Part shown: piece after piece, positions 1,513-10,394 of the stretch
How positions within the stretch are numbered: the stretch's first letter is position 1
Layout: each line of letters starts with the position of its first letter
NCBI GenBank assembly: GCA_017610385.1
Contig: JAFCCC010000003.1
Coordinates: 1-64,000 of the forward strand
Source: Candidatus Nanohalarchaeota archaeon
GTDB taxonomy: Archaea > Nanohalarchaeota > Nanosalinia > Nanosalinales > JAFCCC01
DNA length: 64,000 nucleotides
Reading direction: 5' to 3'
Program-made: the position numbers and the translations under genes
Notes under the pieces: generated by a model
The model's database searches: none
What the model was told of the DNA's origin: nothing
Seen by the model: the letters and a program-made list of their open reading frames with translations, nothing else

Positions 1513-2328
1513 TTATAAATCATCTAAAGGACTTTGAATATTTTTTAATTTGCTGTTTGCAACATGAGTATAAATTTGGGTTGTTTGTAATCTTGAATGA
1601 CCCAACAAAGTTTGTATATATCTTATGTTTATTCCTTTTTCCAATAAATGGGTTGCGAAACTGTGTCTTAATGTGTGACAACTTACCTTCTTTTTAATGT
1701 TTGCTTTTTTTGCAGCATATTCAAATATTTTTTGAACAGCTTTTATAGAATATTTGTTATTTCTTCCTAAAAATAAATATTTTTGATGCTGTTCAAGCGC
1801 AATATAATTTCTAAGGTCTGGTTTTAGTTTTTCCGGAAGCATAACATACCTTTGTTTATTTCCCTTTCCTAATATTTTTACTACATTTCTTTCAAAATCT
1901 ATATTATTTACTTCTAGATTTACAAGTTCTGAAACCCTTAAACCCAAACCATAGAGACATTTTAATACTAATTTGTGTTTCGTGTTATTTGCAGAATTTA
2001 TTATCTTTTTTACTTCTTCTTTTGAAAGTACGGTTGGAAGTTTATTTTCCCGTTTTGGTCGTTTTATATTTTTACAAATATCTTTTTTTAAGACGTTCCC
2101 GAAAAAGAATTTTAGTGAACTTATGGCCAAATTTGCAGTGATATTGGTATAATGTTTTTTTATAATTAAATACCGAAGATATTTTTTAATATCTCTTTCT
2201 TGAATTTGTGGTATTTCTTTTTTGATAAATTTTAAGAAATCTTTTACAAAATAACTATAAGATTTTTTTGTTTTTTTGCTAAGGCCTCTACAATCCAATT
2301 CGAGTTCCAGTTTCTCAAGTTCGTCCAT
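1513..2328 (-). CDS. Xer-family tyrosine recombinase/integrase (XerA/XerD-like), putative cassette-array integrase
   Basis: SAM-like N-domain; catalytic residues in GLRVSE, GKGNK, HTLRHSFATHLLE, LLGH and TTQIYTHV; likely start is MDELEK at 2328; no IntI-specific insertion. Confidence 0.93.
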   Translation of the reverse strand: MDELEKLELELDCRGLSKKTKKSYSYFVKDFLKFIKKEIPQIQERDIKKYLRYLIIKKHYTNITANLAISSLKFFFGNVLKKDICKNIKRPKRENKLPTVLSKEEVKKIINSANNTKHKLVLKCLYGLGLRVSELVNLEVNNIDFERNVVKILGKGNKQRYVMLPEKLKPDLRNYIALEQHQKYLFLGRNNKYSIKAVQKIFEYAAKKANIKKKVSCHTLRHSFATHLLEKGINIRYIQTLLGHSRLQTTQIYTHVANSKLKNIQSPLDDL

Positions 2329-2358
2329 ACATACATTTTTAATTGATTTATATATAAA

Positions 2359-2386
2359 AATGTGCATATAAGTTGTTATGTCTAAT
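2359..2386 (+). repeat. Recombinase-proximal dif-like site (attI-equivalent), 6-bp spacer
   Basis: AATGTGCATAT-AAGTTG-TTATGTCTAAT; resembles E. coli dif GGTGCGCATAA-TGTATA-TTATGTTAAAT. Confidence 0.75.
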
Positions 2387-2399
2387 TTTCTCGGGTGCC

Positions 2400-3044
2400 T
2401 TATAGCTTTTCCATAAAGAAATAGTTCCCAATATGTTCTTTTTTGCCTGCAGTCATGGTAATCAATTTGGCTTCAATTATACGAAAATGCGACTCAAATA
2501 ATTGTTTCATTTCTTCAAATGAAGAATAATATAATTTTGTTCCAGCAGGCATTTTTGCACCTTCAGGAATTATTCTTAAATCTTTACCTTTCGCTCCGAA
2601 ATCAGGATTTTGATTATTGAAACAAATTGATAGATATTTTCCTTTTTCATTCAAAATCCTTTTAATATTCTCTAAATATTTGTTTCTTTGCTCAGGTGGT
2701 ATGTGGTGCAAAATTGCCCATTCCAATACAAAATCAAATTTATTATTTATTTCATCTAAATCAGCAACATCAAGAGACATAAATTTGATTTTTACATTAT
2801 GTTTCGCCGCATTTCCTTTTGCTAGTTTTATTGCATTTTCTGAGATGTCTATCCCTGTTACATCAAAACCTTTTGAAGCCAAATAAATAGCATAGAATCC
2901 TTCGCCACATCCAACATCGAGAACTTTACATGGTTTAATTTTTTCACTCTCAATTAGTTTTACTAATTCTTTTGGTGGCTCGGATTCTGTCCAGACTGCT
3001 CCTTCTTCATATATTTCTTCAAACATTTCTTTATCATTACTCAT
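2400..3044 (-). CDS. Class I SAM-dependent methyltransferase (cassette 1)
   Basis: VLDVGCGEG motif I, GIDIS, FDFVLE; TehB/TPMT-like. Confidence 0.9.
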   Translation of the reverse strand: MSNDKEMFEEIYEEGAVWTESEPPKELVKLIESEKIKPCKVLDVGCGEGFYAIYLASKGFDVTGIDISENAIKLAKGNAAKHNVKIKFMSLDVADLDEINNKFDFVLEWAILHHIPPEQRNKYLENIKRILNEKGKYLSICFNNQNPDFGAKGKDLRIIPEGAKMPAGTKLYYSSFEEMKQLFESHFRIIEAKLITMTAGKKEHIGNYFFMEKL

Positions 3045-3152
3045 AATTTAGTTAATTGTTCCATATTATATAAAATTAGTGATTGACGGCACCCGAGAAA
3101 ACTCTGCGGTTTTTTGCTACGCAAAAAATCCCCAAATTCTGACTTCGTCAGA

Positions 3153-3182
3153 ACTTCAGATAATCGCGATGTTAGTTGTAAT
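3153..3182 (+). repeat. Cassette core site 1
   Basis: ACTTCAGATAA-TCGCGATG-TTAGTTGTAAT. Confidence 0.8.
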
Positions 3183-3192
3183 TTTTGGGCAA

Positions 3193-3555
3193 TCAAATAT
3201 AGACTTCGATTTTTTGTTTAGAATATTCTTTCTTCAAAAAATCTAGTTTATCTTTATCTAGAACTTTTTTCCTTTTCATATCAAATAGCAATATGTTTAT
3301 AAAATCGTCAAGAAACGGTTCGGCAAATGCTATCTGAAATTGTTCACTATTTTCCAAAATTAATTCTTTTATAATATCAATAAAATTTTTTGGTTGTTCA
3401 ACCAGATGAACAATTTCAGGCAAAGCTCCTAATATTTGCTTTTCAAGCTCATCCATTAACTTTTTATCCGCATTTGCCATATCAATACGTTCTTGCAGTG
3501 TTGATCGCTCTACATATAGACCTACAACCTTCTTGACGATTTCTTTTGAACCCAT
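3193..3555 (-). CDS. Hypothetical protein (cassette 2)
   Basis: 120-aa ORF exactly filling the space between a 13-bp inverted repeat pair; upstream TATA-like box. Confidence 0.75.
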   Translation of the reverse strand: MGSKEIVKKVVGLYVERSTLQERIDMANADKKLMDELEKQILGALPEIVHLVEQPKNFIDIIKELILENSEQFQIAFAEPFLDDFINILLFDMKRKKVLDKDKLDFLKKEYSKQKIEVYI

Positions 3556-3772
3556 ATTATAATGTTAATTTTAAAGTTCTTATATATCTGTCGATTGCCC
3601 AAAAACTCTTCGGGATTTTTTGCTTCGCAAAAATCGTTGCACTATCCCTCGGTCTTTTCTATGAAAAGACGCAACTAACAGGAATTTAACGGTTCCGAAA
3701 CCTTGCAGGTTTCTACACCCAAATTTGATTTTCCAGCTCTGTTCCGCCTTCGGCTCCACGAGGGAAAATCAA

Positions 3773-3802
3773 ACTTCGCTTAATCCTGATGTTATACGAC
3801 AT
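3773..3802 (+). repeat. Cassette core site 2
   Basis: ACTTCGCTTAA-TCCTGATG-TTATACGACAT. Confidence 0.8.
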
Positions 3803-3850
3803 TCGCTCGCAGGCACAAAATTATTAAATGATTTAAGTTAACTAATTTTT

Positions 3851-4369
3851 ATGGATGATAAAACTAGAAAAAAGATTGAAGAATATGCAAAATCAATGAG
3901 ATGGACACCTAAAGATTTTTATTGGAAACATGCATTTATGGTTAGAGAATTCGCTCTAATGATTCAAAAAAGAGTCGGCGGAGATAAAGATATTGTTGAA
4001 GTTTCAGCACTTTTACATGATATTGGAAAATCAAAATTGCTCGGTCCTAAACACGAGGAAATTAGCGCAAAATTAGCAAAGGAATTTCTTGAACAAGTAG
4101 GATTTGATATAAATAAAATCAAGAAAATTGTCGAGTGTATAGAGTATAAAAATTTTAAGTCTATTGAAGCAAGAATTTTGCGCTCCGCCGACTCTATGAG
4201 TCTACTCAGGGACAAGGAAGGTCAAAATTGGTATTTTAAGACTATCTTAAAGAATAATAATGAGCGAATTCTCAAAGAGCTAAAAAAATCTTATTCTGAA
4301 ATTGAGTTTGATTTTGCAAAGAAGTTTGTTGAAGAAAATTACAAAAAATTAGTTAAAAAATATGAATAG
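3851..4369 (+). CDS. HD-domain phosphohydrolase (cassette 3)
   Basis: H...ALLHDIGK...H...D (RSADS) HD-family motifs. Confidence 0.88.
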   Translation: MDDKTRKKIEEYAKSMRWTPKDFYWKHAFMVREFALMIQKRVGGDKDIVEVSALLHDIGKSKLLGPKHEEISAKLAKEFLEQVGFDINKIKKIVECIEYKNFKSIEARILRSADSMSLLRDKEGQNWYFKTILKNNNERILKELKKSYSEIEFDFAKKFVEENYKKLVKKYE

Positions 4370-4415
4370 AGTGCCTGCTCGCGGACGCTGCGCTTAAAAT
4401 TCTTTCTGAATTTTA

Positions 4416-4445
4416 CACTCGTATATCCCTAACGTTAGACGTAAT
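4416..4445 (+). repeat. Cassette core site 3
   Basis: CACTCGTATAT-CCCTAACG-TTAGACGTAAT. Confidence 0.7.
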
Positions 4446-4502
4446 CGTAAGAGATGCCTACAAGAAAGAAAGATTTATTAATGCCCCAATTTTACTAAAT
4501 TT

Positions 4503-4985
4503 ATGGAGAAAAAAACACTTTTAGATTTTATAGCAAGGGCACACAGACATACTTATGCCGCACCAAAAGAAGTCAGAAAACAACATAGGTGTGAGGTGCC
4601 CATTCAAGAAGGTCATAAAGATTATGAATTTGTAGAAGGAGATTTAAGATATCACGATTCCTATGCAGGAAGCCAGTGGGCACCTGGAAGAGAAGTTGTT
4701 TTCTTTCAAGGAAATCCTATTTGGTGTATGGCATATCAAGGACAGCATAATTCAAAATATAATGACGCTTTTTTCCACGAACAAGCATTTCCATTTTTGA
4801 AAAAAGCTTTAATGAATTTTGATGACAGCATGCCTTTTAGAGGTCCTAAAGAATTCTCAGATGGTGCTTTCAAATATACTTTTGAAATGGAAGGAAATTA
4901 TGATTATTTCAAAGGGCAAGAGAGAATTCTTTACAAAGGAGAAAGTGTTTTTTTCCAAGATGTTATGGGTTCATTAATAACATAG
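4503..4985 (+). CDS. DUF5680-like protein (cassette 4)
   Basis: YHDSYAG...GREVVF....PIWCMAY.G and PFRGP..F..G.F.Y pattern recalled for DUF5680. Confidence 0.7.
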   Translation: MEKKTLLDFIARAHRHTYAAPKEVRKQHRCEVPIQEGHKDYEFVEGDLRYHDSYAGSQWAPGREVVFFQGNPIWCMAYQGQHNSKYNDAFFHEQAFPFLKKALMNFDDSMPFRGPKEFSDGAFKYTFEMEGNYDYFKGQERILYKGESVFFQDVMGSLIT

Positions 4986-5135
4986 AACGACATCTCTTAC
5001 GACTTCTTCGGAGTTTTTTCAAAACTCCTCGACCACGCCTTGCAGGCTCTCCTTCGGATCGGGGGCAATTAACAGCAATTAAGAGGAAAATCCCTTGCAG
5101 GAATTTTCCCAAATTTGCTCCACTCCGTTACGCAA

Positions 5136-5165
5136 ACTTCTTATAATCATGATGTTATACGATAT
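5136..5165 (+). repeat. Cassette core site 4
   Basis: ACTTCTTATAA-TCATGATG-TTATACGATAT. Confidence 0.8.
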
Positions 5166-5216
5166 TTGTAATTGTGCATAGCAAATTTTATAAAATTAAT
5201 AAATAACTATATTTTT

Positions 5217-5477
5217 GTGAGACATGAAAAAAAAGTTTGGCCAGAATATTTTCAAAAAATCCTTGATGATAAAAAAACTTATGAGCTTCGTCTTGCTGAT
5301 TGGGAATGCAACGAAGGAGATATTTTAGTTTTGCGGGAATGGAATCCGGAAACTAAAGAATACACTGGAAGAGAAATTGAAAAGAAAGTTACTTATGTTG
5401 GCAAAACTAAAAATTTTACATTCTGGCCAAAAGAAGATGTTGAAAAATATGGTTATCAAATCATAGCTTTCAAGTAG
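5217..5477 (+). CDS. ASCH/PUA-fold (DUF3850-like) protein (cassette 5)
   Basis: HEKKVWPEYFQKILDDKKTYELR...GDILVLREW...YTGR; probable GTG start at 5217. Confidence 0.85.
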   Translation: MRHEKKVWPEYFQKILDDKKTYELRLADWECNEGDILVLREWNPETKEYTGREIEKKVTYVGKTKNFTFWPKEDVEKYGYQIIAFK

Positions 5478-5520
5478 AACGGCACATTACAAACGCTAAA
5501 GAGGACGCTACGCTCCAGAA

Positions 5521-5550
5521 ACTTCTCATAAGCCTGGTGTTATACGCAAT
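5521..5550 (+). repeat. Cassette core site 5
   Basis: ACTTCTCATAA-GCCTGGTG-TTATACGCAAT. Confidence 0.8.
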
Positions 5551-5566
5551 TTTTCGATGGGCGGAT

Positions 5567-5896
5567 CTAGTGTGGGAACAAAATCTCTGCAAGAATCCCT
5601 AGTAAAACAAAAAAACCTAAGATTGTAGATATAAATATCAAAACAGAATAATCTTTCTTTTTTGTAATGCCAATAATACCGCAAAAAAAAGCAGCAATAC
5701 CAGAAAAGAACCCGACTAACATCGGCAAGGCTATTCCAGGTCTAACTAGAATATCCTGTGGTATTGTTCTCCCAGCTGGAATAGATTCATAAAGATCTAC
5801 AAAGGATATGCCGATATAAATAAATATTGGCGTAAAAACAAGTAATGCAAATGATAATTTACCTAAATTACTCTTTGGTATAAACTTTATTTTCAT
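5567..5896 (-). CDS. Small 3-TM membrane protein (cassette 6)
   Basis: Three hydrophobic segments; enclosed by a 14-bp inverted repeat pair. Confidence 0.8.
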   Translation of the reverse strand: MKIKFIPKSNLGKLSFALLVFTPIFIYIGISFVDLYESIPAGRTIPQDILVRPGIALPMLVGFFSGIAAFFCGIIGITKKKDYSVLIFISTILGFFVLLGILAEILFPH

Positions 5897-6063
5897 ATTC
5901 TAATAAGAAATATTAATGAGACATATTATTAAGTAAATAACTGTTTGTTTTGATACTATCCCTCGTCCATCGAAAAACTTCTTCCGCTTCGCTCCAGAAA
6001 CTTCTCTTCCAGATTTATTCATTTACCCTTTTAGATTTAATCAAACAAAGTAATAGTATACTT

Positions 6064-6495
6064 ATGTTGGCTAGAATTAAAAATTTCCTGAGTTTCCTGA
6101 ATGGCCTTTTGAATTTTATTCTTTATGGGCGTTATGACTGTGTAGCCGCGATTATACTTACAAAAGATAATTGTATTTGGCTTGTTAAGTTTGCAAAGGA
6201 ATATGGATTGCCTGGAGGAATCGTAAAACATGATGAATCTTTAGAAGAAGCCATTAAACGAGAAGTAAAAGAAGAAACTGGAATTATTGCAAACTCTGTA
6301 AAGTTATTTTATTCTGAAGAACGTTCTGGCATTTCTAAAACGTTCAATGTATATGAAATTACAAATTATGAATTAACCTTAAAATCTTCTCTAGAAGGTA
6401 AACCCGTGAAAGTAAATTTAGTTCATCTCCCTAAACGGATGAGAGGAAGTCATGAAAAAATAATTAAACTATGGTTAAATCAGGAAAAATCTTAA
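6064..6495 (+). CDS. NUDIX hydrolase
   Basis: GLPGGIVKHDESLEEAIKREVKEETG Nudix box; likely start at ATG 6064. Confidence 0.85.
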   Translation: MLARIKNFLSFLNGLLNFILYGRYDCVAAIILTKDNCIWLVKFAKEYGLPGGIVKHDESLEEAIKREVKEETGIIANSVKLFYSEERSGISKTFNVYEITNYELTLKSSLEGKPVKVNLVHLPKRMRGSHEKIIKLWLNQEKS

Positions 6496-10282: not shown

Positions 10283-10394
10283 AGCCCCAGGCGAGATTTG
10301 AACTCACGACCTTTACCTGATTGGCGCAACTGGTTACCAAGGTCTAGCGGGATTGGGTCTTATCCTAACGCTCTACCAGCTGAGCTACTGGAGC
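10283..10394 (-). tRNA. tRNA-Thr(GGT) with two introns (anticodon stem 28/29: 10344-10366; 37/38: 10319-10334)
   Basis: Reverse complement reads GCTCCAG...GAGCG TT^ACC TTGGTA^A GGTAA AGGTC GTGAG TTCAAAT CTCGC CTGGGGC; BHB-like junctions. Confidence 0.88.

Follow-up and report, generated by a model that had tools for sequence, protein, structure and literature searches.

A 64,000-nt stretch of Candidatus Nanohalarchaeota archaeon (assembly GCA_017610385.1, contig JAFCCC010000003.1, positions 1 to 64,000), hereafter the window, carries an array of six small gene cassettes beside a XerA-type recombinase gene, each enclosed by an inverted repeat (IR) pair, or clamp, of its own. Comparison with related arrays indicates that these pairs are probably the distal segment of an integron-type attC stem, extending outward the helix formed by the boxes R'' and R'. 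In classical attC sites the boxes follow the order R''-L''...L'-R' with conserved AAC/GTT, and the crossover is defined as G|TT (PMC2727003). The array runs from the recombinase gene through an attI-like site to the six cassettes, which are parted by junctions (Table 1). The recombinase gene is divergent from the cassettes and the attI-like site lies between the two, which is the arrangement of an integron. All cores are direct repeats, and the junctions end in a conserved block of AACTTC, L', a 3-6-nt spacer, and R'. The end of the first core is 8 nt from the start of the longest open reading frame (ORF) of the recombinase gene, and first R' sites occupy the equal relative position upstream of homologous recombinase genes in related loci.

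Inverted repeats and cassette borders

The six IR pairs were noticed in a sequence-only reading of the window. All were confirmed, as was the claim that they are cassette-specific and define each cassette as a unit. In every case the left arm (IR-L) begins one base past the end of an 11-nt core GTTAnnnnnnA (core ends at 2385, 3181, 3801, 4444, 5164, and 5549), and a C directly follows the 3' end of the right arm (IR-R). Chance was gauged by an anchored search for IRs within 3 kb of 2000 random anchors placed at 7000-60000 of the window, using a deliberately strict score. Scores of at least 11 were reached by 0.45% of the random anchors, at least 12 by 0.15%, and at least 13 by 0%. The real anchors of cassettes 1-6 scored 13, 12, 7, 11, 9, and 11; four of the six pairs are individually far beyond chance. 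In a metagenome variant of cassette 5, whose pair in the window is bulged, one extra base would give a right arm complementary to the left over all 13 nt. A reading of the repeats as ends of transposons resembling miniature inverted-repeat transposable elements was ruled out, the arms being unique to each cassette and abutting a conserved core.

Cassette borders are visible in contigs assembled from four other metagenomes, not in reads of the host organism. Agreement with J1 extends to 3174 and with J4 to 5157, in both cases through GTTA, before the contigs diverge; another contig contains cassette 2 (3169 to 3649) behind unrelated sequence. The related locus L095 also contains cassette 4, directly behind attI; judged by eye, the two copies are about 93% alike across the aligned cassette, and the L095 copy has a 14/14 IR and a perfect R''. 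Crossover probably occurs at G|TT of R', because R'' fits the R' that starts its own cassette; a cassette would therefore start 10 nt before IR-L. This GTT of the "core site" as the likely crossover had escaped the sequence-only reading, as had the inner R''/L'' arm of the long junctions and the internal deletion of four junctions.

When circle junctions were modelled with DNA parameters, the IR formed the closing stem. The loops of the junction hairpins read as G-N-A triloops on the bottom DNA strand. Triloops of this kind are especially stable in DNA hairpins. The fold and the comparison below both support the earlier proposal that the IR would close an excised circle. Its companion proposal, pairing across the gene in single-stranded DNA, was likewise borne out in prediction: when the integrated cassettes (409-796 nt) were folded as single strands, the IR was part of the minimum-energy fold in five of six cassettes on both strands, with 11-14 of 12-15 IR positions paired and mean pair probabilities of 0.70-0.99. 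The sixth is the cassette with the bulged pair, for which a register count is not meaningful.

These whole-cassette folds bear on the possibility that the clamp acts mainly in the integrated array, where looping out of single-stranded DNA would join both crossover points and promote excision. Besides the persistence of the IR in five of six folds, this would account for the R' tail and IR-L fitting their own R'' and IR-R better than the neighboring R' does. The folds are thermodynamic predictions, however, and cassettes of 2.5 kb (L063 and L073), for which loop closure would be costly, are clamped as well. We consider a main role of this kind unlikely, although looping out and closing the stem of an excised circle are not mutually exclusive.

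Cargo genes lie three on the plus and three on the minus strand and junction orientation is constant, therefore pointing to a signal at the level of DNA rather than mRNA. That the pairing instead acts on RNA, for example in transcript end pairing or processing, is scarcely credible. The many stable hairpins in the junctions would suit such a role, but cargo occurs on either strand while the polarity of junctions and IRs is fixed relative to the recombinase gene. No Rfam family was matched in 2300-6200 at gathering score or at expectation values (E) up to 1, and the bottom-strand G-N-A triloops are a feature of DNA hairpins.

Table 1. Positions of the recombinase gene, cargo genes, IR arms, and junctions in the window, and of two further cassette loci of the same genome
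Feature	Position	Strand	Details
Recombinase, XerA-type, 284 aa	1513..2367	-	Pfam PF00589 + PF13495; NCBIfam NF040815
attI-like junction J0	2340..2385	+	R' GTTATGTCTAA at 2375-2385
Cassette 1 cargo, S-adenosylmethionine (SAM) methyltransferase	2400-3044	-	Pfam
Cassette 2 cargo, 120-aa ORF	3193-3555	-	no family
Cassette 3 cargo, HD-domain protein	3851-4369	+	Pfam
Cassette 4 cargo, DUF5680 protein	4503-4985	+	Pfam
Cassette 5 cargo, DUF3850/ASCH protein, ORF	5172-5477	+	Pfam
Cassette 6 cargo, 109-aa ORF, small membrane-like protein	5567-5896	-	no Pfam family; "membrane-like" judged from translation
IR-L/IR-R, cassette 1	2386-2399 / 3088-3101	+	14/14
IR-L/IR-R, cassette 2	3182-3194 / 3593-3605	+	13/13
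IR-L/IR-R, cassette 3	3802-3816 / 4371-4385	+	12/15
IR-L/IR-R, cassette 4	4445-4456 / 4991-5002	+	12/12
IR-L/IR-R, cassette 5	5165-5177 / 5482-5493	+	12/13, one unpaired base (bulge)
IR-L/IR-R, cassette 6	5550-5563 / 5964-5977	+	13/14
J1, short	3102..3181	+	hairpins 3108-3131 (5') and 3137-3153; L'-spacer-R' core ends 3181; no R''/L''
J2, full attC-like site	3606..3801	+	5' module hairpins 3612-3635, 3651-3670; R'' 3671-3679; L'' 3681-3692
J2, inner parts	L' 3777-3786; R' 3791-3801		variable part: hairpin 3697-3713, stem 3724-3734/3763-3773
J3, short	4386..4444	+	R''-like box 4419-4427, 6 nt from R' 4434-4444; L''/variable part/L' deleted
J4, long	5003..5164	+	5' hairpin 5010-5028; degenerate R'' 5065-5073; L'' 5075-5086; L' 5137-5148; R' 5154-5164
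J5, short	5494..5549	+	no R''; L'-spacer-R' core ends 5549
J6, truncated, array end	5978..6006	+	like J5 up to AACTTCTC (5999-6006), then no L'/R'
C9 solo cassette (L101)	C9:36985-37810		R' GTTAGACGAAA; 14/14 clamp; attC-like site, model R1 E 1.9e-9; 8/9 R''
C11 array (L019, L103, L105)	C11 ~120300-122050	-	two cassettes; attC-like sites E 1.2e-4, 0.19; no outer clamp

A two-tier stem in related arrays

Eighty loci with homologous recombinase genes formed the comparison set, and the 60 with at least 600 nt of upstream sequence were analyzed together with the window and the C11 array of the same genome. Pairs of R' and R'' were called independently of the IR by a strict definition (9/9 complementarity plus the flanking motif). 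This retrieved 60 pairs, of which 18, in 13 loci, possess an outer IR scoring at least 10 that starts directly after the 11-nt R'. Among control pairs called by the same definition, none had such a repeat (0/31 in reversed sequence and 0/29 on the opposite strand). The clamp is 12-21 nt long in the related arrays. IR-R is separated from R'' by 2-4 nt in six bacteria-titled copies, mostly of candidate phyla, in which clamp and R box make up one helix broken by a small conserved mismatch; in twelve archaea-titled copies the gap measures 43-67 nt and is occupied by a hairpin module.

In nine cassettes from seven related loci (L027 and L065 with two each, L063, L064, L073, L076, and L095), R'' is the exact 9/9 complement of the R' that opens the same cassette, and R' differs widely among these loci. 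The corresponding match is 8/9 in window cassettes 2 and 3. The sequence-only reading had placed the clamped ends outside the logic of classical attC sites, which proved wrong: complementarity between cassette start and R'' is the classical rule, and the array of a classical integron integrase (IntI), L098, has 12-14 continuous bp outward from GTT with no separate outer repeat.

Covariation of the IR pairs across homologous arrays, proposed in that reading as a check, was found. The loci L073 and L067 have homologous cassette ends around different cargo, and their IRs differ at two positions on both arms while both remain perfect. The inner tier of the stem covaries too: of 12 predicted pairs in the L box, nine show compensatory changes among seven sequences. 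The L boxes pair over 10-13 nt with no indels in 13 of 18 sites, at most one mismatch being allowed, and lack ungapped pairing in the other five, window J2 among them. Spacers are asymmetric in 11 of the 13 ungapped L-box sites, with 1 nt in the R''-L'' arm and 3-5 nt in the L'-R' arm. A structure model (R1) built from seven sites ties this stem to the recombinase gene: of its 23 matches in the 80 loci, six being training sequences, 22 are found upstream of that gene, on the strand opposite to it.

The compensatory changes also speak to the origin of the repeats. They could be functionless scars of cassette birth, left for instance by inverted duplication of flanking DNA when a site was gained, and such an event would fit arms that differ from cassette to cassette and coincide exactly with the borders of the cargo, as well as the further nested IRs of some cassettes (L065 and L073). 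A scar would not be expected to undergo two compensatory double changes (L073 versus L067), to keep perfect arms beyond the divergence of its cargo, or to conserve its position and flanking mismatch across archaea- and bacteria-titled loci, and we regard this origin as very improbable.

Two side observations concern these ends. The first cassettes of L073 and L067, and also L075, have the same clamp and a conserved C-rich leader (AAACCCCCGACCACCC..., about 50 nt) around different cargo; existing cassette "shells" may take up new genes. In the second cassettes of L065 and L073, second and third IRs are nested inside the outer clamp and bring the paired cassette ends to about 40-45 nt; one of the arms contains an insertion.

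Other search strategies were less informative. A loose R'/R'' definition allowing up to one mismatch was swamped by chance (41/6596 versus 16/7825 and 22/6297 in controls). The core pattern with two mismatches, run on 60 genomes of the same order, gave single hits in 11 against 10 hits in 9 for the backwards control and is uninformative. Self-BLAST of the upstream regions was too insensitive for degenerate cores, and iterated nhmmer with a 41-nt core converged at 12 hits from six sources, the motif being too short for an IR-independent listing of cassettes.

Within the window, the order R''-L''...L'-R' with AAC/GTT and a pairing L box is present in J2 (R1 E 1.7e-11), where the inner R''/L'' arm complements the core. 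J3 and J4 are degenerate versions of it, and it is absent from J1, J5, and J6. The R'' of J2 fits the R' tail opening cassette 2 (8/9), not the R' of J2 itself, and the R''-like box of J3 matches the R' tail of cassette 3 (8/9). In one metagenome contig a J3-like R'' is followed by an L''-like box, then by a hairpin and a segment that matches J2 from 3718 onward; a longer form of J3 therefore exists. J4 is recognized by the model (E 3.3e-8), but its R'' mismatches the R' of its own cassette, whereas the L095 counterpart matches 9/9. J1 gives a weak match (E 0.07). With four of six junctions being internally deleted sites, the window array looks partly degenerate, although all six clamps persist.

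The recombinase and a possible Xer-based integron

The recombinase scores 271.7 bits against the NCBIfam equivalog NF040815 (XerA_Arch, cut-off 220), which places it in the XerA family, and 235.8 bits against the integron integrase model TIGR02249, below its cut-off of 265. An alignment locates the IntI insertion, approximately 32 aa around patch III, in 3/3 classical IntI proteins and in 0/15 array-linked proteins (that of the window and 14 others). The protein is the sole Xer homologue of the 93.5%-complete genome, two other matches being partial (E 1e-6 to 1e-5). Archaeal XerA resolves chromosome dimers at a single dif site, and as the only Xer homologue this protein may have to take on that task too. 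The genome showed no separate dif-like site, and the core motif is restricted to three cassette loci.

The IntI insertion is described as essential for integron function and as the part that reads the extrahelical bases of attC (PMC8138268, PMC7790495). The latter source further presents the I2 insertion of IntI as an innovation permitting recombination of folded single strands, and Xer proteins as the closest IntI relatives, devoid of this ability. It also describes a precedent in the CTX phage, whose folded single strand imitates a duplex site with an unpaired center. The mostly ungapped L boxes of the arrays studied here agree with the absence of the insertion from their recombinases.

The lack of the insertion invites a different reading of the array, in which the cores, which we take to be akin to archaeal dif, are double-stranded direct repeats, each with an L' arm, a center of about 6 bp, and an R' arm, recombined by a housekeeping XerA as happens in Xer-exploiting elements, with the IRs as relics or in other use. 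A XerA score above the curated cut-off, in the only Xer protein of the genome, would be expected on such grounds, and the short junctions would be explained, since four of the six in the window retain just the L'-spacer-R' core. Recombination between duplex sites does not depend on pairing within a strand, yet covariation is seen in all three of R''/R', L''/L', and the IR, and clamps are present in 18 cassettes (13 loci) but in 0/60 control pairs. We judge recombination of duplex repeats to be improbable as the explanation of the array.

Under the attC-stem reading, a cassette would begin with the TT of a core (G|TTAnnnnnnA) and finish with the G of the core that follows. At the 5' end would stand the R' tail and then IR-L, and at the 3' end IR-R followed by R''-L''-variable part-L'-G, with the hairpin module between IR-R and R'' in archaeal copies. 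After excision, one strand of the circle would fold into a hairpin with L box and R box paired, and the cassette-specific IR would extend the R-box helix by 12-21 bp past the small conserved mismatch. The clamp would go unread by the recombinase as sequence and could thus drift while its pairing is kept. It may keep the weak, A+T-rich 9-bp R arm double-stranded, as an enzyme without the I2 contact would require, such that the folded site mimics a duplex Xer site with an unpaired center, the strategy of the CTX phage. The pairs, their covariation, the cassette borders, and the linkage to the recombinase gene are observed, whereas folding in the cell, the strand used, and excision by the array recombinase are what we infer.

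Taken further, the array could be a working Xer-based integron, in which an I2-less recombinase captures and releases single-stranded hairpin cassettes whose L and R arms, fully paired and held by the clamp, imitate a duplex dif-like site. It would then be an extant equivalent of the Xer-like ancestor proposed for IntI, shared by DPANN archaea and candidate-phyla bacteria. We put this forward tentatively, as a possibility for which the odds are somewhat adverse.

Several points weigh against an attC-type stem. The recombinase lacks the domain held necessary for single-strand attC recombination (PMC7790495), and the metagenome contigs show borders and variants, not recombination in the host. 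A fitting R'' is kept in only two of six window junctions (J2 and J3, 8/9 each). In J1, J5, and J6, which have neither R'' nor L'', the core cannot pair in a hairpin, and what the clamp closes there would be a loop in which the core stays unpaired. The 12/15 pair (score 7) and the bulged pair (score 9) fall short of significance in the anchored test taken by itself; they were accepted because each sits exactly between gene end and junction start. The sequence-only claim that every cassette is clamped stands for the window (6/6) but fails for the genome (7/9), where the two cassettes of the C11 array have no partner next to R'. Finally, with 31 and 29 pairs in the controls, chance would account for about half of the 60 strict pairs, and the clamp-bearing share is poorly measured. 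Because about half are chance pairs, most genuine cassettes of the family appear to carry a clamp, at an uncertain share.

Set beside classical integrons, the system shares a divergent tyrosine recombinase gene with adjacent attI, heading an array of cassettes with one or two genes each, and R''-L''...L'-R' sites with a probable G|TT crossover, a variable terminal structure, and a patchy distribution. It differs in a recombinase lacking the IntI insertion (15/15, versus its presence in 3/3 classical IntI), in a 9-bp R box with a conserved 2-nt mismatch and the unique 12-21-bp clamp, and in the 43-67-nt hairpin module that archaeal copies possess between clamp and R''. Further differences are L boxes that pair with no indels in 13/18 sites, with spacer asymmetry instead, and cargo in both orientations. 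Classical integrons recombine a folded single (bottom) strand, which is resolved by replication, and extrahelical bases in the L box mark the strand that recombines. On sequence grounds, the sites conform to integron definitions while the recombinase does not, and the array is thus not filed as a classical integron.

Archaeal attC arrays, including some from Nanoarchaeota, were reported by Ghaly et al. 2022 (PMC9668308). Most occur with no IntI gene, as clusters of attC sites lacking integron integrases (CALINs), and only six archaeal IntIs, carrying the IntI-specific domain, were found. The present array differs from the integrons described there in starting beside a XerA-type gene, which standard IntI criteria do not call. 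Arrays like it may be among those CALINs.

With Xer/dif and CTX-type elements, the array has in common an Xer-type enzyme devoid of I2 and L and R arms of about 11 nt each. Those elements are phages or islands at chromosomal dif, in contrast to a tandem cassette platform beside a recombinase gene, and the cassette-specific stems are a further difference. In pdif modules, known from Acinetobacter plasmids, Xer-type sites of conserved sequence and opposite orientation flank small gene modules. Small gene modules bounded by Xer-type sites are present here as well, but the cores are direct repeats and each cassette has flanking repeats of its own, which sets the array apart from pdif modules.

The literature searched (main texts) describes no outer cassette-specific extension of the attC stem and no Xer-headed cassette arrays in DPANN or candidate-phyla genomes. 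The novelty that the sequence-only reading attached to the repeats is to be divided: complementary cassette ends are classical, and the repeats themselves extend that rule, whereas a unique 12-21-bp clamp outside the R box differs from it. What is of interest is the clamp in combination with an I2-less recombinase.

The clamp is an obvious candidate substitute for I2-based recognition, and sites that covary as single strands beside I2-less Xer-type genes make the transition from Xer to integron directly testable. In a tiny archaeon, integron-style cassettes operated by a simple recombinase of the Xer type would bear on the origin of integrons. If the array is indeed a Xer-based integron, such recombinases could be the "missing" integrase for many of the archaeal attC clusters reported with no IntI. 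The arrays also suggest that surveys requiring the IntI domain miss recombinases of this kind among DPANN archaea and candidate-phyla bacteria. A recombination site that is defined by structure, and whose clamp is free in sequence, would also have practical value.

Distribution, genome setting, and neighboring features

Model R1 located two further loci in the host genome (788 kb, 32% G+C), to which, with the window array, the core motif is confined. The C9 solo cassette is remote from the recombinase gene. Its cargo is a minus-strand ORF of 102 aa (DUF7557), and the stretch immediately preceding the cassette is similar to the attI-like sites seen in other loci. The C11 array is a two-cassette remnant that adjoins a tRNA gene and opens with a piece similar to the attI region and 5' end of the recombinase gene. 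In 69 other species genomes of the same order (61-99% complete), R1 found no match at E up to 0.001 with stricter filters (a phylum-wide run covered the same 70 genomes), and the array family occurs in other genomes titled as DPANN archaea and candidate-phyla bacteria. The distribution among these genomes is patchy, as for integrons.

Among the nearest homologues of the recombinase (loci L021-L038, 44-48% identity) are candidate-phyla-bacteria-titled records with the same kind of array, a hint that the whole system has been transferred between domains. The window itself is archaeal by Pfam and NCBIfam searches, which identified Pus10 at 197-1435 in addition to the archaeal-type recombinase. 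Public runs contain at most 8% of the words sampled from 2300-6200, and none contains the array itself.

The first hairpin after IR-R (3108-3131, 3612-3635, and 5010-5028) has runs of four to six T on both strands; as a speculation, such hairpins could be two-way archaeal transcription stops that insulate the cassettes. In the four unrelated metagenomes, summed contig depth over the long junctions (3610-3870 and 5051-5181) is tens to hundreds of times that over cargo genes, which makes such sites abundant repeats in the communities concerned. Outside the array, Rfam identified a 112-nt tRNA at 10283-10394 on the minus strand of the window, unreported by ARAGORN, which is probably an intron-bearing archaeal tRNA gene.

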